Shown one piece after another: positions 20,627 to 52,089 of a stretch of 64,000 nt of DNA. This stretch comes from Magnetovibrio sp. (lineage in GTDB: Bacteria > Pseudomonadota > Alphaproteobacteria > Rhodospirillales > Magnetovibrionaceae). Location: positions 44,082 to 108,081 of the forward strand of contig NZ_DATCTF010000006.1 of assembly GCF_036568125.1 (NCBI RefSeq). Reading direction: 5' to 3'. A program made the translations under genes and the position numbers. The notes beneath the pieces are model-generated. The model made no database searches, was not told the DNA's origin, and saw only the letters and a program-made list of their open reading frames with translations. The number at the start of each line of letters is the position of its first letter. Within the stretch, counting starts at the first letter, position 1.

Positions 20627-20804
20627 TCACAGTGAAAAACGGGGCTGTCGCGCGATTGCGCGGCGCTGTTGCAGTGAATTTATCCGTTTGTTCATCCCTT
20701 AAAAGGCGACTTTATCCACAATCAGGTGAAACGCCTCTTGCCTAGAGGCGAGCGCTTTCATATATTCCGCGCCAAATCCACACTCTGGGAGATATAGGCA
20801 GAAC

Positions 20805-21221
20805 ATGAACGTGACTCTTCCTCCCGATTACAAACCCTCCCCCAAGGAGGAGTTTATGAACCCGATGATGCTCGAGTACTTCCGCCAGAAGCTTCTGGAT
20901 TGGAAGAGCGATCTTTTGAAGGAATCGCACGAAACCCTGGAACACCTTCAGGAAGGCGGTATTCTCGAACCCGACATCGCCGACCGTGCCTCGATTGAAA
21001 CGGACCGCGCCTTGGAACTGCGCACGCGTGACCGTGCGCGCAAGCTGATCGCCAAGATCGACGAAGCGCTGGAACGCATCAACGATGGCAGCTATGGCTA
21101 TTGCGAAGACACGCACGAGCCGATTTCCATTCCGCGTTTGGAGGCCCGTCCGATTGCGACGTTGACCATCGATGCGCAGGAACGCCACGAACGTATGGAA
21201 AAAACCCACCGCGACGACTGA
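20805..21221 (+). CDS. dksA: RNA polymerase-binding transcription factor DksA (single-Cys alphaproteobacterial type)
   Basis: DIADRASIETDRALELRTRDRARKLIAKIDEALERINDGSYGYCEDTHEPISIPRLEARPIATLTIDAQERHE. Confidence 0.9.
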   Translation: MNVTLPPDYKPSPKEEFMNPMMLEYFRQKLLDWKSDLLKESHETLEHLQEGGILEPDIADRASIETDRALELRTRDRARKLIAKIDEALERINDGSYGYCEDTHEPISIPRLEARPIATLTIDAQERHERMEKTHRDD

Positions 21222-21257
21222 GGCTTGGTCCAAGTCTTCACGGAACCGATTGCAAAA

Positions 21258-21284
21258 GGCCGGAGCACCGCTCCGGCCTTTTTT
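21258..21284 (+). terminator. rho-independent terminator after dksA
   Basis: GGCCGGAGC-ACC-GCTCCGGCC followed by TTTTTT. Confidence 0.7.
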
Positions 21285-21310
21285 GCGATCCGAACCACAG
21301 GATAAGTGGA

Positions 21311-21341
21311 CAAAAAGAGAGGCCGGAGCAAAGCTCCGGCC
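21311..21341 (-). terminator. rho-independent terminator after flgH (near-copy of the dksA hairpin)
   Basis: GGCCGGAGC-TTT-GCTCCGGCC on the minus strand, followed by TCTCTTTTTG. Confidence 0.6.
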
Positions 21342-21399
21342 TTTAAGTTGGGTGGAAGAGGGGCGTACCCCAATTCCGAACGGAAACGATCTAAAAGGC

Positions 21400-22161
21400 T
21401 CAGAACGGGAACAGGATGTCCCAGAGCTGAGTTCCCCAGCGAGGCTGCTGGAGATTGCTGAGCGTACCGCGGCCACCGTAAGCGACGCGCATCTCGGCAA
21501 TGCGGGTGTGAGCGATGGAATTGTCGGCGTCGATGTCGCCGGGGCGAACCACGCCGGTTAATTCCAACTCACGCATTTCTGAATTCACCATCAACTCCTG
21601 GCGACCCAGGATGACCAGTGCACCGTTGGGCAGAATTTGCGTCACCACGGCGGCGAAGGTCAGATTGATGGTTTCCTTGCGGTCGATGGTGCCGTCGCCT
21701 GACGTGGAGTGGTCGTTGCCGAAATTGGCGGCGGCGGTGGGGCTGAAGCCGGCGGGCAGATTGTTCTTGGCCAGCTTGGTTTCAAAGCCCAACAAATTGG
21801 TGACGTTGGCGCTTTCGCTGTCGGTGCGGGCGCGTTCGGTCTTGTTTTGCAGCGCGGCGCTGTCCGACAACGCCAAGCTGACGGTCAAAATGTCGCCGAC
21901 TTCCTTGGCGCGGTGATCCTTAAAGAAGGCCCGTGCGCCAGGACGCCACAACGAGTTGGGGTTGTTTTCGGCAACCTTCGGCGCGGGCATCGGCATGCTG
22001 ACCGGGCGATAATTGGGCATCACCGTGGGGTTGGTGATTTGCGTCAATTCCGGTCCGTCGCCGATTTCACTGATCCGCGACACGGTGTTGCAGGCGCTGA
22101 CGGTGGCCGCCAACGTGGCGGTGAGCATCAGGTTTTTAAACAGGGAGGTGGTCCGTTTCAT
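21400..22161 (-). CDS. flgH: flagellar L-ring lipoprotein FlgH
   Basis: Lipobox LAATVSAC after MKRTTSLFKNLML. GDILTVSL, FAAVVTQILPNGALVILG and YGGRG motifs. AGGAGA Shine-Dalgarno before the ATG at 22161. Confidence 0.9.
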   Translation of the reverse strand: MKRTTSLFKNLMLTATLAATVSACNTVSRISEIGDGPELTQITNPTVMPNYRPVSMPMPAPKVAENNPNSLWRPGARAFFKDHRAKEVGDILTVSLALSDSAALQNKTERARTDSESANVTNLLGFETKLAKNNLPAGFSPTAAANFGNDHSTSGDGTIDRKETINLTFAAVVTQILPNGALVILGRQELMVNSEMRELELTGVVRPGDIDADNSIAHTRIAEMRVAYGGRGTLSNLQQPRWGTQLWDILFPF

Positions 22162-22177
22162 GGCTACTCTCCTAAAA

Positions 22178-23167
22178 TTAGCGCATCGCCAGATTGACTT
22201 GCGCATCGACGCGAACCTGTCCGGGTCCGGTGACGACGCCTTCAATCACGGTGCTGGTTTGACTGTTGGAGATGCGGATGGTGTCACCGGTTGCACCCGA
22301 TTCAAGCGCTTTTCCCTTGGCGGTCAGGCGCATGCTCGGGGTCGACAAGACCATGGTGACGGTAGCCCCTTTGGCGATGTCGACGGGCCGACGGATGTCG
22401 TTTTCGGTGATGGGGTTGCCCGCCGAAATGGTGCGCTTGGCGGCCATGCCGATGAGGTGGCTGGGATCGGTGACGGCGTTGCGCGCCAGCCGGGCCTGGG
22501 GCATCTCAACCCACTCCAAGTCGCCCTCTTCGATGGTGTCGCCACCCATCTTGCGTTTGGCAAGCACCGGGACTTCGGTCATACGTTCCAACCGGCCGCT
22601 GACGCGGCGGCGTTCGTCTTTGGCGTTGCCCCAGGCGAGCACGGCGCTGAACCGGCCGGTGCTGGCGTCCAGGTTGATTTGGTCGACACCCAGCAAATAG
22701 TCCTCGCCGACCGGCAGGTGCAAACGAAACGAGCGGTTGGCCAGTGTGGCGCGCGACGAGGCGTCACCGCCTTCGGCAACCAGGCGTTCGAACAGCAGCG
22801 CTTCGATTTCGCTCTTGCTGATGACTTGGCTGTCGCGTTCCACGACGACGCGATCCGCCGCGGAACCGGGCTGCCAATTCAGCTTGAATGCAGCAGCAAC
22901 CCGCTTGAGCCAGCGGGCATCGAACACGGCCCTCGAGCCGGGGCGCGGGGCATAGGCGACGACGCGTTCTGCGTATTCGCCCGTGCCTTGAAACAGATCG
23001 CCCAGACGGATCACACCGTCTTGGATGAGGATGCTGTGGTTAAGCGCGACGTACCCTCGGGGGTGTTCGATGGCGGTGTCGGCGGGCTTTTGTCCGCCGA
23101 CGCTGGCCGCCAGAGCAGGGGCGCCGCTCAAAAGCGTGAGAGCGAAAAGAAAGGCAATGCGTTTCAT
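22178..23167 (-). CDS. flgA: flagellar P-ring assembly chaperone FlgA
   Basis: Signal peptide. C-terminal GDTIRISNSQTSTVIEGVVTGPGQVRV is typical of FlgA/SAF-domain proteins. Position between flgG and flgH. Confidence 0.75.
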   Translation of the reverse strand: MKRIAFLFALTLLSGAPALAASVGGQKPADTAIEHPRGYVALNHSILIQDGVIRLGDLFQGTGEYAERVVAYAPRPGSRAVFDARWLKRVAAAFKLNWQPGSAADRVVVERDSQVISKSEIEALLFERLVAEGGDASSRATLANRSFRLHLPVGEDYLLGVDQINLDASTGRFSAVLAWGNAKDERRRVSGRLERMTEVPVLAKRKMGGDTIEEGDLEWVEMPQARLARNAVTDPSHLIGMAAKRTISAGNPITENDIRRPVDIAKGATVTMVLSTPSMRLTAKGKALESGATGDTIRISNSQTSTVIEGVVTGPGQVRVDAQVNLAMR

Positions 23168-23177
23168 AGCGTCCTCC

Positions 23178-23963
23178 TTACCTCAGCGACGTCAAGGTGC
23201 CCATCATGTCATCCGAGGTCTGGATGACCTTGGAGTTCATTTCGTAGGCGCGCTGCGCGGAGATCAGGTTGGAGATCTCTTCCACCGCATTGACGTTGGA
23301 GGTTTCTAGGAAACCCTGCAAAATCGTGCCGTAACCGGTGGTGCCGGGGGCCGCCGTGGTGGCGTTGCCCGATGCCGGGGTTTCCAGATACAGGTTCGAG
23401 CCGATGGATTCCAAACCGGCTTCGTTGGCGAAAATAGCGGTCTGAATTTGGCCGACGTTGGAATAGGCGACCTGACCATCCAGCTTCACCAGAACTTCGC
23501 CGGAGGTGTTGATGGCGACGTCCACAGCGTTGCTCGGCACTGTGATGTTGGGCAGGATGGGATAGCCGTCATGGGTCACGATCTGGCCGTTGGCGTTGAG
23601 CTGAAAGGTGCCGTCGCGGGTGTAGGTGGTGTCGCCGTTGGGCATCTGCACCTGGAAGAAACCGCGCCCCTGAACCGCTAGATCGAAGGCGTTGTCGGTG
23701 GGGTTGAGGTTGCCTTGTTCGTGGATGCGATAAACGGCGGCAAGCTTCACGCCCAAACCGATCTGCACGCCCGACGGCACGATGTCGCCGGCGTCCGAAG
23801 AGGTCGAACCGACACGGCGCAGGTTTTGATACAGCAGGTCGTGGAATTCCGTGCGCCGACGCATGAAGCCGGTGGTGTTCATGTTGGCGAGGTTGTTGGA
23901 TACGACTTCGACGTTGCGCTGCTGGGCCAACATGCCGGTGGCTGCGATGCTTAAAGATCTCAT
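23178..23963 (-). CDS. flgG: flagellar distal rod protein FlgG
   Basis: MRSLSIAATGMLAQQRNVEVVSNNLANMNTTGF and SNVNAVEEISNLISAQRAYEMNSKVIQTSDDM. Confidence 0.95.
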   Translation of the reverse strand: MRSLSIAATGMLAQQRNVEVVSNNLANMNTTGFMRRRTEFHDLLYQNLRRVGSTSSDAGDIVPSGVQIGLGVKLAAVYRIHEQGNLNPTDNAFDLAVQGRGFFQVQMPNGDTTYTRDGTFQLNANGQIVTHDGYPILPNITVPSNAVDVAINTSGEVLVKLDGQVAYSNVGQIQTAIFANEAGLESIGSNLYLETPASGNATTAAPGTTGYGTILQGFLETSNVNAVEEISNLISAQRAYEMNSKVIQTSDDMMGTLTSLR

Positions 23964-24045
23964 GGTTTCCGTCCTTTCGCTCTTTGGCGTTTGTTTTGTG
24001 TCTGTCGGAGGCTCTTAAAGGTCTCAACGCCAGATCAAGTGCTGA

Positions 24046-24789
24046 TCAGTTGCTGCCGACTTTGGCCAGTTCGTTGATGGCCTTGCGGATGCGTTCGTCT
24101 TCTTTGTCGATGAAGCTCTGGGTGCTTTTGTATCGACGGCTGACTTCGATCATGCGGGTCATTTCCAACACGCCTTCAACATTGGAACGCTCCAGGGCGT
24201 GCTGGGCCAGTTGGGGCCGGTCGATCGGTATGGCGGCCTGATCGGTGGTGTACAAACCGTTGCCGGCGCGTTGCAAAGCCAAAGGCCTGTCGAAGGTGAC
24301 AACCTGAAGCTTGCCGATCTGGCCGTTTTCCGTCGAGATCGTGCCGTCACCGTTGACCACGATGTTGGTGTCTTCCGGGGCGAAAAAAATCGGCGCACCG
24401 GCATCGGTCAGCACAGGCTGGCCGTTTTGCGTGACCATTTGGCCGGTGTTGTCGAGGCGGAAGTTGCCGTTTCGGGTATACTGCTGGGCGCCGTTGGGGC
24501 CTTGAACCACGAAATAGCCGTCGCCGTGAATGGCGATGTCGAGAGGATTGCCAGTTTGTTCGATGGTGCCTTCGGAGGTATCGCGATAGCTGGCGACGTC
24601 GCGGGTGAACGACAGGCGCTGGTCGGCGATGAAGTCCCCGGACTTGGAGCGCGTGATATGGTCGACGAACATCATCCGCTCACCTTTGTAGCTGGTGGTG
24701 TTCATGTTGGCCATGTTGTTGGCGATGGTGCTCATTTCTCGGCGCAAGGCTCCCAGGCGGGATAGCGCAATATATGAAGAAGTTTCCAT
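24046..24789 (-). CDS. flgF: flagellar proximal rod protein FlgF
   Basis: IALSRLGALRREMSTIANNMANMNTTSYKGE N-terminus and SNVEGVLEMTRMIEVSRRYKSTQ C-terminus. Confidence 0.9.
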   Translation of the reverse strand: METSSYIALSRLGALRREMSTIANNMANMNTTSYKGERMMFVDHITRSKSGDFIADQRLSFTRDVASYRDTSEGTIEQTGNPLDIAIHGDGYFVVQGPNGAQQYTRNGNFRLDNTGQMVTQNGQPVLTDAGAPIFFAPEDTNIVVNGDGTISTENGQIGKLQVVTFDRPLALQRAGNGLYTTDQAAIPIDRPQLAQHALERSNVEGVLEMTRMIEVSRRYKSTQSFIDKEDERIRKAINELAKVGSN

Positions 24790-25187: not shown

Positions 25188-25283
25188 CGGCATCATATTG
25201 TGGTGAGCTGAGTTAACTTACATGCGGTGCGCGTGGGCGCGTTTCGATATGATAAGTCAGGACTCAAAACGAGTGGAGACGGC

Positions 25284-25847
25284 ATGGCCGACGAAGAACT
25301 AGAAGAAGACCTGGACGACGGCGTCGGTGAGTCCGAGGACGAAGGCGGCGAGGGCGAGGGTGGAAGCGGTTCTGGTAAAAAGCGCCTCCTGATTGTCATC
25401 GCGGCGGTCCTGGTGTTGATTCTGGGTGGTGCCGCGGCGGCTTACTTCACGGGTCTTTTGCAGCCGGTGATTGACATGTTGTCCGGCGGTCAGGATGCGG
25501 TTGCGGTCGAGGAGCTCGATCAGCAGCAAGTGATCTCCGGCGATGCCGTGTTCTACGATTTGCAAGAAATGCTGGTGAACATTAACACCGGCGGGCGCAA
25601 GGCGGTTTATTTGAAGATCCGCGTCAGTCTGGAACTGGAAAGCGGTGACGATATCGTCAGAATTGAAGAAATGATGCCGCGCATCGTCGATAATTTTCAG
25701 ATTTACCTGCGCGAGCTTAGAATTGAAGACCTGAAAGGGTCGGCGGGCATGTACCGACTGCGTGAAGAGCTGCTCAAGCGCGTAAGCGTGGCTGTGGCGC
25801 CCGCCAAGGTCAACGATGTGTTGTTCAAGGAGATGCTCGTCCAGTAA
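25284..25847 (+). CDS. fliL: flagellar basal-body-associated protein FliL
   Basis: Acidic N-terminus, one TM segment, then VFYDLQEMLVNINTGGRKAVYLKIRVSLEL...MPRIVDNFQIYLRELR. GGAGA Shine-Dalgarno before the ATG at 25284. Confidence 0.85.
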   Translation: MADEELEEDLDDGVGESEDEGGEGEGGSGSGKKRLLIVIAAVLVLILGGAAAAYFTGLLQPVIDMLSGGQDAVAVEELDQQQVISGDAVFYDLQEMLVNINTGGRKAVYLKIRVSLELESGDDIVRIEEMMPRIVDNFQIYLRELRIEDLKGSAGMYRLREELLKRVSVAVAPAKVNDVLFKEMLVQ

Positions 25848-25871
25848 GGCGAGCGGAGGTTAGGCAAAAGC

Positions 25872-27032
25872 ATGACTGCGCCCGGTGAAGACGTCGATCA
25901 AGATGCCATGGCGGCGGCCTGGGAGGCTGCCATGGGCGGTGGCGACCCCGATGCCGACAGCGGTGGCGGTGGCGACGACGGTGACGATCTCGCCGCCGAA
26001 TGGGCCGCAATGCTGGATTCCGGCGGTGGCGGCGAGGCTGCTACGGGCGGTAGTTCTCCACGAGAATCAACCCGCGTTCTGAACCAGGACGAAATCGACA
26101 GTCTGCTCGGCTTCGATGACGACCTGGAAGAAGGCGACCAGAAATCCGGTATTCAGGCGATCCTCAACTCGGCGCTGGTGTCTTACGAACGCCTGCCGAT
26201 GCTCGAAGTTGTGTTCGACCGCTTAGTGCGTTTGATGTCGACGTCATTGCGCAACTTTACCTCCGACAACGTTGAAGTCTCCCTCGACAACATCACTTCG
26301 ATCCGTTTTGGCGATTATCTCAACTCGATCCCGCTGCCGGCCATGCTTTCGGTGTTCAAGGCCGAGGAATGGGACAACTACGGTCTGCTGACGGTCGATA
26401 GCTCTCTGATCTACTCGATCGTAGACGTTTTGCTCGGCGGACGACGCGGCACGGCGGCGATGCGTATCGAAGGTCGTCCCTACACCACCATCGAACGATC
26501 CTTGGTCGAACGCATGGTGCACGTGGTGCTGTCGGATCTGTCGGGCGCGTTCGAACCGCTTTCGCCGGTCACGTTCCGTTTTGACCGCCTGGAAACCAAC
26601 CCGCGTTTCGCGACCATTTCCCGGCCTTCCAACGCCGCCATCGTGGCGCGGTTGCGTATCGATATGGAAGACCGCGGCGGCCAAATGGAGCTGCTGTTGC
26701 CCTATGCGACGCTGGAACCTGTGCGCGAGCTGCTGCTGCAGATGTTCATGGGCGAAAAGTTCGGTCGCGACAGCATTTGGGAAACTCACTTGGCCGAAGA
26801 GCTGTGGATGACGGAAGTCGAGCTGGAAGCCGTGCTCGATACCCAAACCATGCGCTTGGGCGATGTGTTCGATATGCAAAAGGGATCACATATGGATCTC
26901 GGTGCGACACCGGAATCGCAAGTCATGCTGTTGTGTGGCGACGTCCCGATGTATCTTGGGCGTATGGGCCGCAAAGGCGACCAGATTGCGATCCGCATCG
27001 ATGGTCGATATGAGAAGCCCAAGAACGACTAG
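25872..27032 (+). CDS. fliM: flagellar motor switch protein FliM
   Basis: LNQDEIDSLLGF CheY-P binding motif, followed by the FliM middle and C-terminal domains (RLPMLEVVFDR..., ELLLPYATLEP). Confidence 0.9.
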   Translation: MTAPGEDVDQDAMAAAWEAAMGGGDPDADSGGGGDDGDDLAAEWAAMLDSGGGGEAATGGSSPRESTRVLNQDEIDSLLGFDDDLEEGDQKSGIQAILNSALVSYERLPMLEVVFDRLVRLMSTSLRNFTSDNVEVSLDNITSIRFGDYLNSIPLPAMLSVFKAEEWDNYGLLTVDSSLIYSIVDVLLGGRRGTAAMRIEGRPYTTIERSLVERMVHVVLSDLSGAFEPLSPVTFRFDRLETNPRFATISRPSNAAIVARLRIDMEDRGGQMELLLPYATLEPVRELLLQMFMGEKFGRDSIWETHLAEELWMTEVELEAVLDTQTMRLGDVFDMQKGSHMDLGATPESQVMLLCGDVPMYLGRMGRKGDQIAIRIDGRYEKPKND

Positions 27033-27076
27033 CGGAGCCACAGAAGGGACGGCGCTCAAACGCCAGTGAGGTAAAC

Positions 27077-27754
27077 GTGCAAATTGCCTTCGTACTCGAC
27101 GTCATCATTGCGGTGCTTTTGGTGCTGACCATCACCTATGCGGTGCGTCTCAACCAGCGTTTGGCACAATTGCGCAGCGACAAAAACGAATTGATGGAAC
27201 TGGCCAAAACCTTCGCCGAAGCCACCGTCAAGGCCGAAGCGGGCATCAAGGCGCTTAAGATTTCCAGCGAAGCCTTGCAAACCGACGTCCAAAAGGCCGA
27301 AGCCTTGCGCGACGACTTGGCCTATCTGGTGGAACGCGGCGGACGTTCGGCGGATGAAATGGTTGCTTCCGTGCGTGCACCCAAATCGCAGCGTCATGAC
27401 TTTTCACCCGAAGAAGAGGATGAAGACCTGCTGATCGAAGAAGCGATCCGCGCCGCGACACCGGGTGCCGGTGGCCGACCGGGGGGGCGTGCCGATACGC
27501 GTCCGGGGCCGCGCTTCGGGGCTAAAGACGATAATTCATTGGCGCGTGGCGAGACGACCCGGCGCGTCAGTTTGCATCCTGAACCGGCGCCTGCGCAACG
27601 ATCGTCCGAGCAACGCAGACTGGGTGGCGGATTGGGTGGCTTGAGCGCCCAGGACCGCTTGCTCGACAAACGCGGGACTTCCGCCGAAGAGCCGTCCATT
27701 GGCGATACGGATGCCGCACGTGAACTGCTCAAGGCGCTCAGCTCGATGAAGTGA
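27077..27754 (+). CDS. hypothetical membrane-anchored coiled-coil protein in the fliLM operon
   Basis: GTG start with a GAGG Shine-Dalgarno. One N-terminal TM (FVLDVIIAVLLVLTITYAV), a coiled-coil segment, and an Arg/Gly/Pro-rich low-complexity tail. Confidence 0.6.
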   Translation: MQIAFVLDVIIAVLLVLTITYAVRLNQRLAQLRSDKNELMELAKTFAEATVKAEAGIKALKISSEALQTDVQKAEALRDDLAYLVERGGRSADEMVASVRAPKSQRHDFSPEEEDEDLLIEEAIRAATPGAGGRPGGRADTRPGPRFGAKDDNSLARGETTRRVSLHPEPAPAQRSSEQRRLGGGLGGLSAQDRLLDKRGTSAEEPSIGDTDAARELLKALSSMK

Positions 27755-27780: not shown

Positions 27781-28641
27781 ATGGCTATGGCGCAAGGGAA
27801 CATGAGTATCGGCAGAATAACCCCGGTTCGGCGGAGTGCGCATGCGCTGCCCGAAGCGGACGAAGAGCTCGACTTTTCGTTCGAAGAGCCTGAGGCGAAA
27901 AAGCCCAGCCTGTTGCGCCGAGTGGTTGTTAAGGTGCGCCTGTTGCCGATGGTCATCTTCTTTTCCACCCTGACCTTGACCGTGCGCGTCGGCGATATCT
28001 GGGAAGGCGTCGATGGTGTGTTGAACGGCACCGTGTCCGTCGCCACCACCCAGGCGCAAACGGGAACTGATCCAGCGGCCACTGATGCCGCCATGCCCGC
28101 AGCTGACGGGTTGCCGTCGGAACTGATGTCCACCGATGGGTTGGACCCCGGTGCGATGGCGGAAGAAGACCAAGCCGCGGTTGCCGCGCGCATGTTGGCG
28201 GACGATCCGACGTTGCTGACGCAATCCGAAATCGACTTGTTGCAAAAGCTTGCCGAGCGCCGTGTCGAGATTGATGCGCGCGCCCGTGAATTGGATAGCC
28301 GCGTCGCGCTGCTCGCCGCCGCGGAATCTCGGATCGATAGAAAAATTCAAGATTTCAAGGCGTTACAGGCGACGATCGAAAGTTTGATCAAGACCTATGA
28401 CGAACAGCAGGACGCCAAGTTGATGAGCTTGGTGAAGATCTACGAAAACATGAAGCCCAAGGATGCCGCACTCATTTTCGAAGAGTTGGAAATGGACGTG
28501 CTACTGCAGGTGGCGGAACGGATGAAGGAACGCTCTTTGGCGCCGATCATGGCGAAGATGAATCCCCAGCGGGCGCGTGAGGTGACGGTCGAACTGAATG
28601 CGTTGCGCAAGTTGCCGGAACCGAACCCGGCGGGCGGGTGA
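27781..28641 (+). CDS. MotE-like protein (MgtE-N-like flagellar motility domain)
   Basis: C-terminal LMSLVKIYENMKPKDAALIFEELEMDVLLQVAERMKERSLAPIMAKMNPQRAREV is the MotE/FlbB-type motif. One TM segment. An alternative start at 27802 has a better Shine-Dalgarno. Confidence 0.6.
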   Translation: MAMAQGNMSIGRITPVRRSAHALPEADEELDFSFEEPEAKKPSLLRRVVVKVRLLPMVIFFSTLTLTVRVGDIWEGVDGVLNGTVSVATTQAQTGTDPAATDAAMPAADGLPSELMSTDGLDPGAMAEEDQAAVAARMLADDPTLLTQSEIDLLQKLAERRVEIDARARELDSRVALLAAAESRIDRKIQDFKALQATIESLIKTYDEQQDAKLMSLVKIYENMKPKDAALIFEELEMDVLLQVAERMKERSLAPIMAKMNPQRAREVTVELNALRKLPEPNPAGG

Positions 28642-28939: not shown

Positions 28940-29332
28940 ATGGCTGTCGATAAGAACATGAATGTTCTGATCGTGGATGATTACAAGACCATGCTCAGGA
29001 TCATCCGAAACCTTCTGCGTCAACTTGGTTTCGAAAATGTAGATGAAGCGACGGACGGAACCCAGGCGCTCGAGAAGCTCAAAGAAGGCGGCGGGAACTT
29101 CGGATTGGTTATTTCCGATTGGAACATGGAGCCCATGACCGGCATTGAATTGCTGCGTCACGTGCGCGCCGACGACAAGCTCAAGCATATTCCCTTCATC
29201 ATGGTGACGGCGGAATCCAAGTCAGAAAACGTGATCGCGGCGAAAGAAGCCGGTGTGTCCAACTACATCGTTAAACCTTTCAACGCTGATACCCTCAAAT
29301 CGAAGATGGTCAGTGTGCTGGGCGACTTCTAA
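28940..29332 (+). CDS. cheY: chemotaxis response regulator CheY
   Basis: VLIVDD, phospho-acceptor context LVISDWNMEPMTG, MVTAES and YIVKPF. Confidence 0.9.
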   Translation: MAVDKNMNVLIVDDYKTMLRIIRNLLRQLGFENVDEATDGTQALEKLKEGGGNFGLVISDWNMEPMTGIELLRHVRADDKLKHIPFIMVTAESKSENVIAAKEAGVSNYIVKPFNADTLKSKMVSVLGDF

Positions 29333-29351: not shown

Positions 29352-30080
29352 ATGGCCGGACGTAAGTCGAATACGGCCACGGCTAAAAAGCCGAAGGCCA
29401 TAAGAAAACCCAGTACCAAGTCTGCTGCTAAGGACGGTGCGGTGAAAAAACGCGCCGTCAAAGCTGTCGATCAGGTCATTGCAGCCGCCAAAAAGGTCAA
29501 ACGCAAAGGCAAAGCGGTCCCGATCGCTGCGCCCAGGCGCGCCAAACGCGACCCGGCTGTGACCATTTACGCCGAACTGGAACGCTTAGCGGCCTACATC
29601 GATGCGGCGAAGCGCGAAATCGCGGAAATTCGTCCTCAAGACGTAAAAGAGGAATATCTGCCCGGTGCGAGCGACGAGCTGGATGCCATCGTCGCGGCGA
29701 CTGCTGACGCGACCAACACGATCATGGACAATTGCGAAGTGATCGAGGGGGTGATGGGTGACGTCAACGATGCGGTTTCGGCAAAGCTTATGGATGCCAC
29801 GACACACATCTATGAGGCTTGCACCTTTCAAGACATCACCGGGCAGCGCATCGGCAAAGTGGTTGCGGCGCTGAAAAACATCGAAAAGCGCATCGATGCC
29901 TTGGTGTTGACGCTCGGCGACGAGATCATCAAGCCACAGAAGAAAAATGCCAAGCCTGAACCCACGGGCAAGAAAGAGAAGAAAGAAATCACCGACGCGG
30001 ACCTTCTCGAGGGTCCCCAGCTTGGCGACAAGGCCAAGAGCCAGGCTGAGATCGACGATCTTTTGGCAAGTTTTGACTAG
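29352..30080 (+). CDS. cheZ: CheZ-family CheY-P phosphatase with Lys-rich N-terminal extension
   Basis: DELDAIVAATADATNTIM...ACTFQDITGQRIGKV (catalytic QDxxGQ context) and a C-terminal QAEIDDLLASFD CheY-binding-like peptide. Confidence 0.75.
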   Translation: MAGRKSNTATAKKPKAIRKPSTKSAAKDGAVKKRAVKAVDQVIAAAKKVKRKGKAVPIAAPRRAKRDPAVTIYAELERLAAYIDAAKREIAEIRPQDVKEEYLPGASDELDAIVAATADATNTIMDNCEVIEGVMGDVNDAVSAKLMDATTHIYEACTFQDITGQRIGKVVAALKNIEKRIDALVLTLGDEIIKPQKKNAKPEPTGKKEKKEITDADLLEGPQLGDKAKSQAEIDDLLASFD

Positions 30081-30094
30081 GGCTCACGTCCGCC

Positions 30095-30799
30095 ATGGAC
30101 ACCATGAACGACCAGATCAAGCGGTTACCTGAAGAGGGCCCCAACACCGTCGCCCTGTTTCTCGGGCTGTATCTGGTCGTGTTGGCGTTCTTCATTTTGC
30201 TGGTGACGATTTCCACCGTCGAGGAAACCAAATCGAAAAAGGTGATGGACAGCCTGTCCAGCGCGTTCACTTCCATCGTACCGCCGTCGGCGGACCTGCA
30301 AAGCTTTCAATCCAAAGACGGCGACGTCTTGGCGGGGCAGGAATTTCAGCAGCAGGTGACGGGCATTTTTTCCACTGCCCTGGGCATCGACAAAGTCGAA
30401 ACCGTTCAGCCGGGACGGCAGATGCGCTTGTTGTTGAAGGCTGACAGCTTGTTTTTTCAAGACGAGGCGCGCATCCGTCCGGCAATGTTTCCGCTGCTGG
30501 ACCGAACCGTAGCGGCGCTGTCCAGCCGCCCGTCGGGATTGCGTTACGATTTGGAGTTCGTGATCGGCACACCGACCGCCGATGACGGCAAAACCATGCC
30601 GACGGAAGAAACGCTGGAAGTGCGCCGCGCTGGGGCGTTCGCCGATGAAATGAATTCGCGCGGCATTCCGCCCGACAGCGTCGCGGTCGGCATGCGTCCG
30701 GGCCATGTCGGGGAAATCGTGATCTGGTTCTATACCCGCGACATCGAAAAAACCAAACTGCAATTCACTGAGGAGGATCGGTTCAAGAATGCCCGGTAG
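30095..30799 (+). CDS. MotB-like membrane protein, degenerate (no TM Asp, degenerate OmpA-like domain)
   Basis: The TM helix VALFLGLYLVVLAFFILLV resembles the MotB TM but has no acidic residue. The C-terminal LLLKADSLFFQDEARIRPAMFPLLDRTVAAL...VRRAGAFADEMNSRGIPPDSV resembles an eroded OmpA/MotB fold. Confidence 0.5.
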   Translation: MDTMNDQIKRLPEEGPNTVALFLGLYLVVLAFFILLVTISTVEETKSKKVMDSLSSAFTSIVPPSADLQSFQSKDGDVLAGQEFQQQVTGIFSTALGIDKVETVQPGRQMRLLLKADSLFFQDEARIRPAMFPLLDRTVAALSSRPSGLRYDLEFVIGTPTADDGKTMPTEETLEVRRAGAFADEMNSRGIPPDSVAVGMRPGHVGEIVIWFYTRDIEKTKLQFTEEDRFKNAR

Positions 30800-30802
30800 C
30801 AT

Positions 30803-31540
30803 TTGAACGCTGTGCCCATGCTCGACGACGACATGACCCCTGATATGCAACGCCAAGCAGGCCCGAAAGCGGCCTGGATGGTCACGTTCGCGGATCTCGT
30901 ATCCCTGATGCTGACCTTCTTCGTGTTGCTGTTTTCCATGTCGTCGCTGCAAATGGACGAATGGGACGCGATGACCGACACCCTGACCCAGACCTTGAAC
31001 CCGGGCAAGCTGACCACCGTCGCGGCGGCCACGGCTGAATTCAACATCGGCACCATCTTTCGCCGACAGGCCACCGACCTGGATTATCTGTCCGGGGTCT
31101 TGCAGCGTGGCGTGCAGGAAGACGAGCTGTTGAGGGCCTCTAAGATCATGCTGCTCGACGACCGTTTGGTGGTGGCGTTACCGGGTGACCTGTTGTTCCC
31201 GTCGGGAAAGGCGGAGATGCCCGACGAAGCGCGCTCGGCCCTATTTACGCTGGGTAGTCTTTTGCGCAACGTCGGCAATCAGATCGGCGTCAACGGCCAC
31301 ACCGACCCCAGTTTGCCGTCAGGTGAAAGCGGCTTTCAAACCAACTGGGAACTTTCCGTGGCGCGCTCGGCTGCGGTGGCCAACGCCTTGCGGGCGTCGG
31401 GCTATACCGATGACATCATCGCGTTCGGGTATGCCGACAGCCGCTACGGCCAATTGCCGGAAATTGATGAAGTCGAACGCGCCAAGCTGGGCCGACGCGT
31501 CGATATCGTAATTTTCCCCACCGTTGGGGGAGGCGACTGA
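30803..31540 (+). CDS. motB: flagellar motor stator protein MotB
   Basis: AWMVTFADLVSLMLTFFVLLF carries the conserved Asp. OmpA-like domain: LPGDLLFPSGKAEM...VNGHTD...NWELSVARSAAVANAL. Start is TTG at 30803 or ATG at 30818. Confidence 0.85.
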   Translation: MNAVPMLDDDMTPDMQRQAGPKAAWMVTFADLVSLMLTFFVLLFSMSSLQMDEWDAMTDTLTQTLNPGKLTTVAAATAEFNIGTIFRRQATDLDYLSGVLQRGVQEDELLRASKIMLLDDRLVVALPGDLLFPSGKAEMPDEARSALFTLGSLLRNVGNQIGVNGHTDPSLPSGESGFQTNWELSVARSAAVANALRASGYTDDIIAFGYADSRYGQLPEIDEVERAKLGRRVDIVIFPTVGGGD

Positions 31541-34500
31541 TGGGGCGGCTGGGGGGCATTCTTTTTGTGGTCGCGTTGATTACGGCGGCCGTCACCAGCC
31601 CATCCGTGTCTTGGGCCGATCCGGTTCAGGTGCGCGCCAGTCGGGGTGACGGCTACGGCCGTTTAACCTTCCGCTGGCCCCAACCGGTCGGCCATCAGGC
31701 GAGCCGCGACGGCGATCGGTTGGTGATCACGTTTTCGCGCCCCATCGAAGCGGACCTGCGCCCGGTGGTGCGGGGGCTGGGACAACTGATCGCCTCGACC
31801 GAAGCCGCGCCCAACGAAGCCACGGTCGTGTTTCGCATCAAGGGCGATTTTTCGGTTCGCAGTTACGACAGCGGTGCATCGGTGGTGGTGGACATCGTCA
31901 GTGCCGCTCAACAGCCTCAACCGCAGACAAACGCACCCCAGGCAGGGAATGTGCAGGGGCAGCAAGTCGCGACGCAGCAGGGCCCCACTGTTCCGGTGCG
32001 CGTCGGCGCTCACGACACCTATTCGCGGATCGTGTTCGATTGGCCCGCTGCTACCGCTTTCGAAGTCGTGCGCGATGGCGTCAACGCCACCATCAAATTC
32101 GCCAAACCGGGACGCGCAAATGTGGCGGCCTTGGCTGGCGGTCGCACGCGCAACATCTCCGGTGCTGAAACCTTTGTCGACAACGGCAATCTCAGCGTCA
32201 CATTGAAGGTCGATGCGACGTCGCAAATCAAGGCGTTCGCCAGCGGCCCCAAAGTGGTGGTCGATGTGTTCGCGCCCGGCACCCAGGCCGCTGCGCCCGC
32301 CGTTGCGGCCACACCCGCAGCCGCACCAGAGCCTACTTCCATACCCACACCTGCGCCCACGCCAGTCGCTGCTGCATCCGCACCAACGCCGCCGAGCGCC
32401 GAAGGCGAACAACCGCCGCCGCCCGCCGCCGTGCCAACCGCGCCGGTGGAATTGGCCCAGTCGGCCCCGGTGAGTTTGGAGCCTCAACCCGCAGCCCAGG
32501 CCGCCCCACAGCCTGCCGCGCCGCCCGTCGAGGACACGCGCATCGAAACCCGCGCCCAGGCCAGTACCATCGCCGAAGGCGCTGTGGCTTTGAAATTCAG
32601 CTGGGACGAACCGGTCGGCGCGGCAGTATTTCGGCGTGGCGGCGATTTATGGGTGATTTTTGACAAGCGCGCAAAAATCGATACCGAGGCCTTGATCCGC
32701 GATGGCGCGGGCTTGATCACCTCGGTCGAACAAGTGCCGTCGCAAAACGGCGCCGTATTGCGTATGACCACTGCGGAAAGCGTCAACCCCGACATCAAAC
32801 GCGCGGGACTGGCGTGGGTTTTGGAATTTATGTCCCAGCCGTTGATCCCCAGCGCGCCGCTGCAAGCCGACTCCCAACCGGACTCGCCTTTGGGTGCGCG
32901 CTTGTTCGTGGCTGTGCCGGAACCAGGCAACATCATCGCCTTTCGCGACCCCGAAGCCGGCGATAACTTGATCGCAGTGCCGGTGATCCCGCTTGGTCAC
33001 GGTATGTCGCGGGAATGGTCGTATCCGCAGCTCAGCTTCCTGCCATCCAAACAAGGTGTGGTGTTGAAGCCGTTGTCGGACGATTTGCGGGTGCGGCCGT
33101 TGCGCCAAGGCATCGAAGTGACCAGCACCGGGACCTTGCAGATTTCCAGTGTCAGCGCCGAAGAAAAGGCCAATGTGGACCTGCAGCAACAATTGGCCGC
33201 CAGCGCCGGCATGGGGGGCTTGGGGCCTGTGACGAGGGTCCTTGATCTGGAAAAGTGGAAACGCCCGGACTTGCTGTCGTTCACCGAAACCAAACAAGAC
33301 CTTCAGCGCGAAGTGGCGTTTGCCAAGAACGACCGTGCGAAAAAACAGAGCCACCGCAACTTGGCACAGTTTTTCTTCGCCAATGGGTTCGAGGCCGAGG
33401 CCTTGGGCGTGCTTCAGGAAATGGTTCGCAGCGAACCGGACTACGCTAAGGAACCCGAGTATTTGGTGATGCACGGGGCGGCCAGTTGGATGATGGGGCG
33501 CATGGAGGACGCGCGCACCGATCTGTTCAATCCCAATCTGGACCCTTACGACGAAGCGACGTTTTGGCGCGCCGCCGTGGTGGCCGGCGAGGGTAAGCTT
33601 GCCGATGCGGCGTACGAGTTGCGCAAGACCGGTTCCATCACCCAGCCTTATCCGAAATCTCTCAAGATGCCGACGGCGACGCTGGTTGCGGCGGCGGCGG
33701 TTGAATTGGGTGACGTTAGACAGGCGACGCAGTATCTCGAAGTGCTGAGTGTCGATAACCCGACCCAAGCGCAGTTGGATCAAATCAAATACGTTTCCGG
33801 CAAGCTCAAGGAATTGAGCGGCGACTTCGATGGCGCAATCGCGGATTGGGAAGCGGTGATGGAGGGACGCCACCGCCCCTCGCGGGCCAAGGCCGCGGTG
33901 GCGCGCACGGAACTTTTGCTCAAACGCAATCTTTTCACCCCGGCAGATGCGATCGAAGAATATGAAAAGCTGCGTTTCGTGTGGCGCGGCGACAATTACG
34001 AATTCGAACTTCTGCGGCGCCTGGGATCTTTGTATCTGGATCAGAAATTCTACCGCAACGGTCTGCGTACACTGCGCCAAGCGGCGACCTATTTCCCCAA
34101 CCATGAGGAAAGCAATCAGGTCACCAAGCAGATGAGCGACGCGTTCAATTTTCTCTATTTAAAAGACGGCGCGGATATCTTGCCACCGGTAACCGCCATT
34201 GCGCTTTACGACGAGTTTCGCGAACTGACCCCGCCGGGGGCCTTAGGCGACGAGATGATTCGACGCCTTGCCGATCGCTTGGTCGGCGTGGACTTGCTGG
34301 ACCGCGCGGCGGACCTGCTGGAACAACAAGTCGACTTCCGCCTCAAAGGCGAAGACAAAGCGCGCGTAGGCGCGCGGTTGGCGCTGATCTATCTGCTCGA
34401 TCGCAAATATGAAAAATCCTTGTCGGCTCTGGATAAAACCGAAGTTCCCGCCGTGGCCGATGCATTGGCGAGCCAACGGGTCTTGCTGCGTGCACAGGCC

Positions 34501-34950
34501 GAAATTGGTTTGGACAAGCCGCAGATGGCATTGGAACTGCTAACCCAGGAAGTCAGTCAAGATGCCGAACTGGTTCGCACCGGCGTCTACTGGCGCGCGG
34601 GCGATTGGAAAAATGCCGCCAAGTCTTTGGCCAAGGTGGTTCGGGGATTGGGCGTAAAGCCCAACAAAGCGATGAACGACAGCCAGGCCGCCGCCGTGCT
34701 GTCGTTGGCGATCGCCCATACTTTGGACGGCAACGAGGTGGCGATCACCCGCTTGCTCGAATCCTACGGTCCCGCCGTGGCCCAGACCAGCTACGCCGAC
34801 GCGTTCCGCTTGATCGCCGAACCGCCCGAGACGGGCTTGGTGAATTTTCGCGGACTGGAACCGATCGTCAAAAAAGTCGTCGATTTCCAAGGCTTCATGG
34901 AAGTCTATCGCCAGCGGATCGCCGACGGGCAACTGAGCTCATTGTACTGA
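31540..34950 (+). CDS. large secreted protein (1136 aa): N-terminal repeated beta-rich modules, Pro/Ala linker, C-terminal helical (TPR-like) repeats; function unknown
   Basis: The ATG overlaps the motB stop (TGATG) and has a GGAGG Shine-Dalgarno. Signal peptide ends VSWA-DP. The C-terminal 500 aa or so are helical-repeat-like by composition. Confidence 0.7.
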   Translation: MGRLGGILFVVALITAAVTSPSVSWADPVQVRASRGDGYGRLTFRWPQPVGHQASRDGDRLVITFSRPIEADLRPVVRGLGQLIASTEAAPNEATVVFRIKGDFSVRSYDSGASVVVDIVSAAQQPQPQTNAPQAGNVQGQQVATQQGPTVPVRVGAHDTYSRIVFDWPAATAFEVVRDGVNATIKFAKPGRANVAALAGGRTRNISGAETFVDNGNLSVTLKVDATSQIKAFASGPKVVVDVFAPGTQAAAPAVAATPAAAPEPTSIPTPAPTPVAAASAPTPPSAEGEQPPPPAAVPTAPVELAQSAPVSLEPQPAAQAAPQPAAPPVEDTRIETRAQASTIAEGAVALKFSWDEPVGAAVFRRGGDLWVIFDKRAKIDTEALIRDGAGLITSVEQVPSQNGAVLRMTTAESVNPDIKRAGLAWVLEFMSQPLIPSAPLQADSQPDSPLGARLFVAVPEPGNIIAFRDPEAGDNLIAVPVIPLGHGMSREWSYPQLSFLPSKQGVVLKPLSDDLRVRPLRQGIEVTSTGTLQISSVSAEEKANVDLQQQLAASAGMGGLGPVTRVLDLEKWKRPDLLSFTETKQDLQREVAFAKNDRAKKQSHRNLAQFFFANGFEAEALGVLQEMVRSEPDYAKEPEYLVMHGAASWMMGRMEDARTDLFNPNLDPYDEATFWRAAVVAGEGKLADAAYELRKTGSITQPYPKSLKMPTATLVAAAAVELGDVRQATQYLEVLSVDNPTQAQLDQIKYVSGKLKELSGDFDGAIADWEAVMEGRHRPSRAKAAVARTELLLKRNLFTPADAIEEYEKLRFVWRGDNYEFELLRRLGSLYLDQKFYRNGLRTLRQAATYFPNHEESNQVTKQMSDAFNFLYLKDGADILPPVTAIALYDEFRELTPPGALGDEMIRRLADRLVGVDLLDRAADLLEQQVDFRLKGEDKARVGARLALIYLLDRKYEKSLSALDKTEVPAVADALASQRVLLRAQAEIGLDKPQMALELLTQEVSQDAELVRTGVYWRAGDWKNAAKSLAKVVRGLGVKPNKAMNDSQAAAVLSLAIAHTLDGNEVAITRLLESYGPAVAQTSYADAFRLIAEPPETGLVNFRGLEPIVKKVVDFQGFMEVYRQRIADGQLSSLY

Positions 34951-34954
34951 TCGC

Positions 34955-34984
34955 GCGCGCGCGCACCGTGCGCGAAATTTTTTT
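34955..34984 (+). terminator. terminator after the 1136-aa gene
   Basis: GC-only stem CGCGCA-CCG-TGCGCG (extendable), followed by AAATTTTTTT. Confidence 0.5.
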
Positions 34985-39077: not shown

Positions 39078-39353
39078 TACGCGATTATCCCGAATTTCTT
39101 CGTTTCAAGTTCCGTAGCGTGACAGATGGCGCTTAACATCCTCTGAATCGCGTGCATGAATTTATGGGGAATCGTCATGCGTGTGCGGGAAAGGGGCGAT
39201 TCATTGAATCTTAAAACGTCTGCGCGAGACTCCGTACATAAGCTTTCCGTTCCAGAAAGGGACATTTGGGGCCCAGAATGGGATCACACCTGAGTAAGGG
39301 GTGAGATGTCTGCAGTCGTGCTGAATTTCGTGACGTCAGTTGGTGAATGAGAG

Positions 39354-39764
39354 ATGGATCTCAATAAACTCACACTGTTTGGATTGGTTAAGGGACACAT
39401 GGGCTGGCTGACCCGCCGCCAGGAAGTTCTTGCCCAAAACGTGGCCAACGCCGATACGCCGAAATACAAACCTCAAGACCTCAAGGCTTTGAATTTTAAG
39501 GATATGATGAGAAAGCAACAGCAGACTCAATTGAATGCTGTGACGACTTCTCCGATGCATATGGCCGGTGCACGACGCGCGACATCGCCGTTTGCGGGCG
39601 AAGAAAACCGCACGCCCTATGAAACCGCACCGGACGGCAACGCCGTGGTGCTGGAAGAGCAGATGGCAAAAATCGGCGAAACGCAAATGCAATACCAGCT
39701 CACCAACGAGCTCTATCGCAAGCACATCGGTATGATCAAAATCGCAATTGGCAAGGGCCGCTAA
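39354..39764 (+). CDS. flgB: flagellar proximal rod protein FlgB
   Basis: RQEVLAQNVANADTPKYKPQDL and QLTNELYRKHIGMIKIAIG. Confidence 0.9.
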   Translation: MDLNKLTLFGLVKGHMGWLTRRQEVLAQNVANADTPKYKPQDLKALNFKDMMRKQQQTQLNAVTTSPMHMAGARRATSPFAGEENRTPYETAPDGNAVVLEEQMAKIGETQMQYQLTNELYRKHIGMIKIAIGKGR

Positions 39765-39824
39765 GGCCCACTTTGGGCCGTTTGAGGCCAGAGGATAAGG
39801 CGCAAGGGCGTCAGGAAGGACGAC

Positions 39825-40235
39825 ATGGACGATCTGCTCAGAACATTGCGGATTTCCGCAGCGGGTATGAAAGCCCAAGGCACGCGCTTGCGCGTGGTTT
39901 CGGAGAACGTCGCCAACGCCGATTCGCTGCCGACCCAGCCCGGCGGCTTGCCTTACCGTCGCAAAGTCGTGACCTTTCGTAACGAACTCGACCGTGCCAT
40001 CGGCGTCGATACCGTGCGCATCGACCGCATCAAAACGGATCAGTCGGAATTTCAGCGCCGCTACGATCCGGCTCACCCGGCCGCGGGTGCGGACGGCTAC
40101 GTGCTGGCACCGAACGTCAATTCGTTGGTGGAAATGATGGACATGCGTGAAGCGCAGCGCTCCTACGAAGCCAACCTCAACGTTATCAAGTCTTCCAAGA
40201 CCATGCTGCAAAGCGCCATCGGTCTTTTGCGCTAA
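39825..40235 (+). CDS. flgC: flagellar proximal rod protein FlgC
   Basis: ISAAGMKAQGTRLRVVSENVANADS and PNVNSLVEMMDMREAQRSYEANLNVIK. Confidence 0.95.
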   Translation: MDDLLRTLRISAAGMKAQGTRLRVVSENVANADSLPTQPGGLPYRRKVVTFRNELDRAIGVDTVRIDRIKTDQSEFQRRYDPAHPAAGADGYVLAPNVNSLVEMMDMREAQRSYEANLNVIKSSKTMLQSAIGLLR

Positions 40236-40272
40236 GTCTTTGGTTTAAATTATTAATTTTGGAGTATGAGCC

Positions 40273-40605
40273 ATGGCCATCAATCCCAATGTGAACATTG
40301 CCCAGGCCGCTCAGTTGTACAATCAGGCCCAGCAAACCGGCATAACGCCCAATGCGATCCCGACCCAGGACATTCAGCCGAACGTACCGGGGCCGTTTTC
40401 CAACTTGGTCTCGGGGTACCTGAATCAGGCCACCCAATTGGGACAAACCAGTGAGCAATTGGCTATCCAGGGCATTCAGAACCAAGCCAATCTGACCGAT
40501 GTGGTGACGGCGGTAAGTGAGGCGGAAGTGACTTTGCAAACGGTTGTTGCAGTTCGCGACAAGGTCGTTGAAGCTTACCGAGAGATTCTCCGCATGCCGA
40601 TGTAA
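40273..40605 (+). CDS. fliE: flagellar hook-basal body complex protein FliE
   Basis: C-terminal LTDVVTAVSEAEVTLQTVVAVRDKVVEAYREILRMPM. Confidence 0.85.
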   Translation: MAINPNVNIAQAAQLYNQAQQTGITPNAIPTQDIQPNVPGPFSNLVSGYLNQATQLGQTSEQLAIQGIQNQANLTDVVTAVSEAEVTLQTVVAVRDKVVEAYREILRMPM

Positions 40606-40672
40606 TCGTGGCGGAGGTTCGCCGGTAGCCGCAGGGGGGCCGGAAGCCGTACGGGGTCTGTGAGCCGAAACC

Positions 40673-40939
40673 ATGAACCAAACCGATGTCCTTGATATTG
40701 CACAGGGTGCGCTGTGGGTCGTGCTGCTGTCGGCCGGACCGATCATGATGGCTGGCCTATTGATAGGTTTGATCATCGCGCTGTTCCAAGCGCTGACCAC
40801 CATTCAGGAAATGACCCTGACGTTCGTGCCCAAGATCATCATTATCTTTATCGCGATCGTGGTTTTCCTGCCCTATATGATGACGACGGTGATCGAATAT
40901 TCCCTGACTCTGTTCGATCGTATCGCGACGGTCGGTTAG
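40673..40939 (+). CDS. fliQ: flagellar export apparatus protein FliQ
   Basis: 88 aa with two TM segments: GPIMMAGLLIGLIIALFQALTTIQEMTLTFVPKI. Confidence 0.9.
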   Translation: MNQTDVLDIAQGALWVVLLSAGPIMMAGLLIGLIIALFQALTTIQEMTLTFVPKIIIIFIAIVVFLPYMMTTVIEYSLTLFDRIATVG

Positions 40940-52080: not shown

Positions 52081-52089
52081 GGGCTTCAA

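Follow-up and report, generated by a model that had tools for sequence, protein, structure and literature searches.

What is the function of a large secreted repeat protein whose gene begins on the very stop codon of motB? The question is raised by a 64,000-nucleotide (nt) stretch of DNA from Magnetovibrio sp. (assembly GCF_036568125.1, contig NZ_DATCTF010000006.1, positions 44,082 to 108,081), called the window below. At 31540..34950 on the forward strand the list of open reading frames (ORFs) contains one of 1136 codons plus stop and no other long ORF, and this gene closes a string of plus-strand genes in the order fliL-fliM-DUF6468-motE-cheY-cheZ-motB′-motB-gene under study, where motB′ is a paralogue of motB. 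An earlier note, made from the sequence letters, had taken the product for a periplasmic stator scaffold, made together with MotB and partnered with MotE. Our analysis indicates that the 1136-amino acid (aa) protein is probably a periplasmic flagellar-motor accessory of the PflA/MotK class, i.e. a tetratricopeptide repeat (TPR) spoke or adaptor with tethered AMIN domains that recruits or stabilizes stators, and we give this reading a probability of about 0.75. It agrees with the scaffold proposal, and is supported by the match of the modelled structure to a solved motor scaffold chain, by the AMIN fold of the N-terminal modules and by synteny.

The class itself has been known since 2024-2026, and probable orthologues of the protein have already been catalogued computationally. 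The further suggestion of the note, that this was an undescribed protein corresponding to no named flagellar component, is therefore not upheld; the class of MotK, PflA and CC_2058 is published, and 'potential PflA' proteins have been tabulated. What distinguishes the subfamily from MotK and PflA is that it has three AMIN modules and an additional, conserved beta domain, and that its gene stands behind tandem motB paralogues. With it the PflA/MotK class gains a large and well-defined sequence family from alphaproteobacteria, which lends support to the view, put forward recently, that an E-ring with TPR spokes is widespread, and probably ancient, in motors outside the enteric models. A 100% identical protein carries the NCBI name 'tetratricopeptide repeat protein [Magnetovibrio sp.]'; annotations of this kind, or 'hypothetical protein', could become 'flagellar motor PflA/MotK-like scaffold protein'. 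The subfamily is found in culturable, fast-swimming spirilla and in magnetotactic bacteria, in which mutants and cryo-tomography are feasible.

Domain organization and fold

The full protein was modelled with AlphaFold2 from 49 family members, giving a mean predicted local distance difference test score (pLDDT) of 85.7, and residues 24-250 were modelled separately (pLDDT 89.9). Column conservation was computed over 49 family sequences. All features of this section lie on the forward strand. The N-terminus, MGRLGGILFVVALITAAVTSPSVSWA/DP, has a basic n-region, a hydrophobic core and an A-x-A-type site as judged by eye, so that residues 1-26 (31540..31617) are predicted to form a Sec-type signal peptide cleaved at SWA/DP. 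The A-x-A motif followed by D or E is kept across the family, in support of the cleavable peptide (VSWA-DP) that had been proposed earlier.

The mature protein begins with two well-modelled domains, N1 (residues 27-121; 31618..31902; pLDDT >90) and N2 (residues 151-245; 31990..32274), joined by a short disordered linker rich in Ala, Pro and Gln (residues 122-150; 31903..31989; pLDDT <50) that ranges from 16 to 49 aa in the family. A second disordered linker follows (residues 246-334; 32275..32541; pLDDT 36-46). The earlier note had estimated it at about 85 aa of Pro and Ala; we measure 89 aa, including 26 Ala (29%) and 25 Pro (28%), which together make up 57%. Its length in the family is 55-166 aa, and the family linkers diverge in sequence as well as in length. 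Beyond it lies a third, more divergent AMIN-like module N3 (residues 335-432; 32542..32835; pLDDT about 90-95). Profile-profile comparison relates N1 to N2 with E=1.3e-24, N1 to N3 with 3.8e-9 and N2 to N3 with 1.3e-9. By this measure the three modules are mutually homologous, and the prediction of at least three related beta modules is borne out.

The solved structure that best fits the model of residues 24-250 is that of the tandem AMIN domains in Myxococcus PilQ (3jc8_Qa, E=8e-6); further matches are Escherichia coli AmiC (4bin) and PilQ (4aqz and 4av2, including the B2 domain of Neisseria PilQ). On the strength of these matches we assign the AMIN fold to the N-terminal modules, although the Pfam scores are below threshold: for AMIN (PF11741) on module 1 E=0.13, with 12.8 bits against a threshold of 20.5, and for AMIN-like (PF24837) on module 2 E=2.2e-4, with 21.8 bits against 27. 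The AMIN-like threshold is just passed by some homologues, with 27.6-28.4 bits.

A fourth beta domain (residues 433-530; 32836..33129) is the second most conserved region of the protein, with a mean column identity of 0.69; many of its residues, such as D470, G474, D475, P481, P484, Q505 and G506, are invariant in the 49 sequences. It carries no fold assignment, and profile comparison with modules N1-N3 revealed no relationship. It is connected by a helix (residues 540-555 in the model) and a loop of lower confidence (together residues 531-578; 33130..33273) to a TPR-like alpha-superhelix that occupies residues 579-1129 (33274..34926). The model of this region comprises about 30 helices in about 15 hairpins, with pLDDT mostly >90, in good agreement with the 500 or so residues of helical, TPR-like repeats that had been expected. 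Conservation peaks in the superhelix at residues 801-935 (mean column identity 0.77), where the motifs WRGD..EF..LRRLG and YDEF+ELTP are found. The modelled TPR region contains no strands, and the N-terminus is a signal peptide, not a membrane anchor, so the hallmarks of PflB, a transmembrane segment and an antiparallel beta pair in mid-protein, are absent. The features listed in the earlier note are thus all present; it had overlooked the fourth beta domain, along with the motB paralogue and a hairpin behind the gene (below).

When the full model was compared with 350,542 PDB chains, 9hmf_K, from the periplasmic motor scaffold of Campylobacter jejuni, came first (E=2.3e-9), and generic TPR proteins ranked behind it at E=1.4e-6 or weaker. 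The chain has 773 residues, and we take it to be PflA from this length, which is that of mature PflA (residues 16-788) if the full-length protein has 788 aa. The earlier comparison with PflA/PflB is thus matched by the best hit among solved structures. Pfam assigned no family to the whole protein, and NCBIfam returned weak TPR-type matches alone.

Association with motB and motE, and distant homologues

The motB gene (30803..31540, forward strand; Pfam MotB_plug 1.5e-14, OmpA 2.5e-8) ends with a TGA at 31538-31540, and the start codon of the gene under study is the ATG at 31540-31542, which takes its A from that stop codon. The overlap of one base (TGATG) and the strong GGAGG noted earlier can both be read directly in the sequence; the Shine-Dalgarno site GGGGGAGG lies within the 3′ end of motB (31526..31533, forward strand), its GGAGG ending 6 nt before the ATG. 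At the other end of the gene a G+C-rich, terminator-like hairpin followed by the T-run AATTTTTTTA (34951..34975, forward strand) begins one base past the stop codon. It has a stem of 9 bp with seven G-C pairs, and was called as a candidate terminator by a consensus scan of the sequence alone. The operon probably ends here.

Relatives were collected by a pattern scan of species-representative genomes, one per species, and at least 570 of the 600 matches listed are relatives of the protein. Synteny was counted in the best 80 loci of these matches. The best 80 relatives come from Magnetovibrio, Thalassospiraceae, Terasakiella and other Rhodospirillales, and are 34-76% identical to the protein. 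The gene order fliL-fliM-DUF6468-motE-(cheY-cheZ)-motB paralogue-motB-gene is nearly invariant, and the association with motB, motE and fliM persists down to 34-40% identity. motB lies directly upstream in 64 of the 67 loci with enough flanking sequence, motE is found at most 4.5 kb upstream in 55 of 55, and fliM is upstream in 52 of 52. Among 63 loci the motB stop and the start codon overlap in 36, the overlap being 1 nt in 23 of them and 4 nt in the other 13, and the gap at the remaining junctions is mostly 25 nt or less; the nearest start codon was chosen in each case, which biases the junctions toward small gaps. The pair of motB′ and motB is kept in most of the 80 loci. The earlier note had held that clear homology to a non-flagellar family, such as one whose synteny with motB is not conserved, would refute its proposal; the non-flagellar scores are below cut-off and the synteny is kept.

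N1 is missing in six loci (L053, L055, L061, L066, L068 and L073), where the match begins at query residue 141-147 or thereabouts and module 2 comes straight after the signal peptide, so that members of the subfamily do not all have the same number of AMIN modules.

The C-terminal half also has more distant homologues in other alphaproteobacteria, in every case within a flagellar cluster. That of Azospirillum lipoferum is an 831-aa protein combining a single AMIN module with TPRs, and its gene lies directly upstream of motA-motB (hhalign E=1.3e-29). Relatives in Erythrobacter aureus and Sphingobium were found by tblastn (8e-18 and 9e-24), with an hhalign E-value of 1.6e-34 for Erythrobacter. 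The place between flgF and flgE is taken in Sulfitobacter, Marinovum, Alloyangia and Tabrizicola by genes for TPR-only proteins of 600-680 aa. These Rhodobacterales genes (L086 26497-28314; L087 3761-5614; L088 3764-5611; L089 8001-10037) belong to fla2-type clusters, several of them plasmid-borne, and their unannotated products have a signal peptide and are homologous to the C-terminal half of the 1136-aa protein. A Roseobacteraceae-group profile aligned with the family profile over 498 columns with E=7.5e-25; used in plain HMMER it finds the window ORF at E=3.8e-21, and from 1.84 billion proteins it recovers 2,244 representatives (50% identity clusters) at E<=1e-3. The C-terminal superhelix therefore defines a broad family of alphaproteobacterial flagellar clusters with between zero and three AMIN modules. 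The subfamily thereby illustrates variation in the class, a conserved C-terminal superhelix being combined with an N-terminal AMIN count of 0 to 3.

We considered the Rhodobacterales TPR proteins of 600-680 aa as orthologues of MotK and rejected this, as they lie between flgF and flgE and have no AMIN domain detectable by profiles, whereas MotK follows motA. As the two kinds of gene occupy different loci, Paracoccaceae may carry two such proteins; a published table contains 768-aa and 593-aa entries for Thioclava (PMC11870540). Around motE, the plasmids of Marinovum, Sulfitobacter and Salipiger carry no large TPR gene. No protein of Cereibacter or Caulobacter was returned by tblastn of plasmids, by protein searches starting from Roseobacteraceae relatives, by an exhaustive hidden Markov model search or a cluster look-up.

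Place among motor scaffold proteins, and alternative readings

In PflA an unstructured linker joins a beta-sandwich to a superhelix of 16-17 TPR repeats; the protein forms radial spokes that scaffold the stators with PflB and FliL (PMC12222027). Mutants in pflA of C. jejuni and Helicobacter pylori lose motor scaffold and stator densities (PMC12222027, PMC12054838). A 2025 preprint calls the beta-sandwich 'PflA-AMIN' from its likeness to the PilQ AMIN in 3JC8 (PMC11870540), and this naming rests on the same entry that is matched by our N-terminal model. The 1136-aa protein resembles PflA (9HMF; the spokes of the proximal disk) in having an AMIN-like beta-sandwich, a flexible linker and a long TPR superhelix of 16-17 repeats, and in its association with a FlgY/MotE-type ring partner and stators. 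It differs in having three AMIN modules, where PflA has a single beta-sandwich that binds PflB. The motors differ too: no PflB-like protein (a transmembrane segment plus TPRs) was seen in the window, and the basal, medial and cage structures of Campylobacterota are without counterpart genes here. Of the features by which the PflA class has been recognized (PMC11870540), the protein has the AMIN N-terminus, the linker, the TPR superhelix, a flagellar locus with a MotE homologue and freedom from PflB hallmarks; what it lacks is detectable sequence homology to C. jejuni or H. pylori PflA. The sequence of PflA is itself not conserved (PMC11870540).

In MotK of the Cereibacter sphaeroides Fla2 system a signal peptide precedes an AMIN-like N-terminus, and beside Pro-rich disordered regions the rest of the protein is TPR-like; its gene is the last of fliL-pflI-motE-motA-motK (PMC10954123, 2024). 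MotK binds MotE and MotB2, depends on MotA2/MotB2 for its polar localization, and is essential for rotation and not for assembly; mutants in either motK or motE carry flagella but are paralysed, and a mutant in CC_2058 is reported to be Mot- (PMC10954123). By description the 1136-aa protein shares with MotK (RSWS8N_12065, WP_041669865.1) the export by Sec, the AMIN fold, the Pro-rich linker or linkers and the TPR-like C-terminal region. Both are encoded by the last gene of a fliL-(pflI)-motE-stator operon, with an overlapping or close stop and start, and both co-occur with MotE where MotC is absent. MotK is however shorter, with 652 aa and one AMIN domain compared with 1136 aa, three AMIN-type modules and an extra beta domain. 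Moreover motK follows motA2, whereas the gene in the window follows motB′-motB, with cheY-cheZ inserted in the string. The binding and the Mot- phenotype of MotK are experimental, while the 1136-aa protein is known here from sequence and model.

CC_2058 of Caulobacter crescentus (958 aa) is likewise described as large and periplasmic, with TPRs and an N-terminus resembling AMIN, and a Mot- phenotype is reported for it. Its gene adjoins that of the MotE-like CC_2059, which bears a transmembrane helix as does the MotE homologue here; it directly follows the motE homologue, not motB. In Borrelia burgdorferi the TPR proteins FlcA and FlcB assemble on a ring of FlbB (MotE family) and are needed for stator assembly; the collar of which they are part is specific to spirochaetes and their periplasmic flagella. 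PflA, MotK, CC_2058 and tentatively MotC have been grouped as partners of the MotE/FlgY/FlbB E-ring (PMC12054838, PMC11870540, PMC13023049), and FlcA/B have also been linked to it as TPR partners (PMC12054838, PMC13023049). Supplementary Table 5 of PMC11870540 gives a 'potential PflA' beside FlgY/MotE homologues in Thalassospira xiamenensis (1169 aa), Magnetospirillum magneticum AMB-1 (1168 aa), Rhodospirillum centenum (1102 aa) and Sneathiella (1143 aa). The T. xiamenensis entry is five accession numbers past the MotE homologue (PMC11870540), a spacing consistent with the window. From size, taxon and spacing the tabulated proteins are likely to be orthologues of the 1136-aa protein.

If the protein belongs to the PflA/MotK class, a mechanism can be proposed. 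After export by Sec, the TPR superhelix would act as a radial spoke or adaptor near the inner membrane, contacting the MotE/FlgY-like ring around the MS-ring, the periplasmic portion of MotB and perhaps FliL. The AMIN domains on their tethers would bind either peptidoglycan, as proposed for MotK, or a part of the scaffold, as the beta-sandwich of PflA binds PflB. The net effect would be that MotA/MotB stator units are recruited, positioned or locked open, and loss of the protein would be expected to leave flagellated cells that are paralysed or weakly motile. The start/stop overlap should favour near-equal amounts of MotB and the 1136-aa protein, as reported for Sinorhizobium motB-motC.

Several observations weigh against this assignment. 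The match to 9hmf_K has low TM-scores (0.13/0.18), owing to a different orientation of the domains, and TPR proteins converge easily. A phmmer search of all PDB sequences (9HMF included) returned nothing relevant at E<=1, i.e. no sequence similarity to PflA. In three loci (L027, L030 and L039) there is no adjacent motB, the gene directly following motE or cheY. Finally, the Rhodobacterales sequence homologues may be a second, PflB-like protein and not MotK, since they are not at the motK position.

The alternative that comes closest is that the protein is the equivalent of MotC, a mostly soluble periplasmic partner that, by binding the periplasmic domain of MotB, opens or regulates the proton channel, with MotE as its chaperone, and is not a fixed spoke. 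MotC of Sinorhizobium meliloti (434 aa) is a periplasmic, MotE-dependent protein encoded immediately downstream of motB, and needs expression balanced with that of MotB. It is predicted to be TPR-rich, and indeed an extended TPR protein (PMC12054838, PMC13023049). The gene in the window stands at the exact place of motC as the earlier note had observed, its junction with motB is conserved, and a MotE homologue is always nearby. Yet a search of NCBIfam and Pfam gave no MotC-named match at E<=1, the presence of a MotC model in those libraries not having been checked. At 2.6 times the size of MotC, a far shorter, TPR-only protein, the 1136-aa protein has beta domains besides, and its three AMIN-type modules and long tether suggest anchoring. 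A 2026 review furthermore argues that MotE is a ring component and not only a chaperone (PMC13023049). We therefore regard equivalence to MotC as rather unlikely, while noting that it overlaps heavily with assignment to the PflA/MotK class and differs from it mostly in degree. The earlier statement that no MotC-like gene is visible holds at the level of sequence, but the gene under study would itself encode the MotC/MotK-class partner.

Could the protein instead be a polar landmark or assembly factor anchored to peptidoglycan, like FimV/HubP or PflI, and not a stator scaffold? The AMIN domains of AmiC and PilQ, which the N-terminal model matches, target septal or polar peptidoglycan, and the DUF6468 gene occupies the position of pflI in the C. 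sphaeroides operon. Nevertheless the tightest and most conserved linkage is with motB and not with placement genes, and the mutant phenotypes described above for motK, motE, CC_2058 and pflA are those of paralysis or of lost scaffold and stator densities. This makes a landmark function very improbable. That it is a general envelope TPR protein (Tol-Pal CpoB/YbgF, or associated with PilF/PilQ of type IV pili) merely lying beside flagellar genes is barely credible: the AMIN fold is indeed best known from PilQ and AmiC, and there are weak TPR-level matches to YbgF (36-41 bits over a 75-residue TPR stretch), PorW/SprE, SctY and MamA, but these are far under the family cut-offs (e.g. 41 bits against 90.1 for TIGR02795, CpoB/YbgF), the synteny holds in distant members of the 80 loci, and homologues in other orders are also inside flagellar clusters, plasmid-borne ones included. 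Tol-Pal, type IV pilus and type IX secretion readings are rejected on the score cut-offs together with the synteny.

The surrounding genes

The motB paralogue (30095..30799, forward strand) encodes 234 aa with a transmembrane helix, a MotB_plug match in Pfam (8.8e-6) and a degenerate OmpA-like C-terminus. Aligned over its whole length, MotB′ shows 24% identity to MotB (E=3e-6). The tandem paralogues suggest a heteromeric or specialized stator; no motA was found in the scanned parts of the window. As a protein with three AMIN modules on long tethers is encoded behind two MotB paralogues, of which one has an OmpA-like (peptidoglycan-binding) domain that is degenerate, it can be imagined that the stator is anchored indirectly, a MotB/MotB′ heteromer being attached to the wall partly via the AMIN domains of the spoke. 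We consider this distinctly unlikely; if true, it would be a stator design not described for MotK or PflA.

The MotE/FlgY/FlbB-like gene lies at 27781..28641 on the forward strand, where the earlier note had placed it, and its product, the presumed E-ring partner, matches MgtE_N (4.8e-5) and collar_FlbB (3.9e-5), both below threshold. At 286 aa this protein is longer than MotE of S. meliloti (179 aa) and of C. sphaeroides (185 aa). It has an N-terminal cytoplasmic stretch, a transmembrane helix at about residues 48-70 and no cleaved signal peptide, features in which CC_2059 of Caulobacter and FlbB of Borrelia are similar.

At the head of the string (25227..27754, forward strand) are fliL (25227-25847; Pfam FliL 5e-19), fliM (25872-27032; FliM 1e-66) and the DUF6468 gene (27077-27754; DUF6468 8e-16). 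Between motE and motB′ are cheY (28940-29332) and a gene for a CheZ(-like) phosphatase (29352-30080), both on the forward strand; the cheY-cheZ insertion is present in most of the related loci and missing in some (e.g. L009, L011, L015 and L016). On the reverse strand flgH, flgA, flgG and flgF occupy 21400-24789, and flgI, flgK, fliP, fliR and flhB are found elsewhere in the window. The window contains no second paralogue of the 1136-aa protein. Near the flagellar genes are ORFs without a Pfam match, all on the reverse strand, at 50269-52089 (606 aa), 39336-40803 (291 and 205 aa) and, beside flgH, 20742-21500 (252 aa); none of them is matched by the profiles of the TPR family.

The gene under study is followed in the window by speD-speE, which are unrelated in function, and about 30 of the 80 related loci also have them downstream of the homologue. 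The DUF6468 gene, between fliM and motE, corresponds to the pflI slot of the C. sphaeroides fliL-pflI-motE-motA-motK operon, although the equation of DUF6468 with PflI is an assumption. It is kept in nearly all of the related loci, and in the Erythrobacter and Azospirillum clusters as well.

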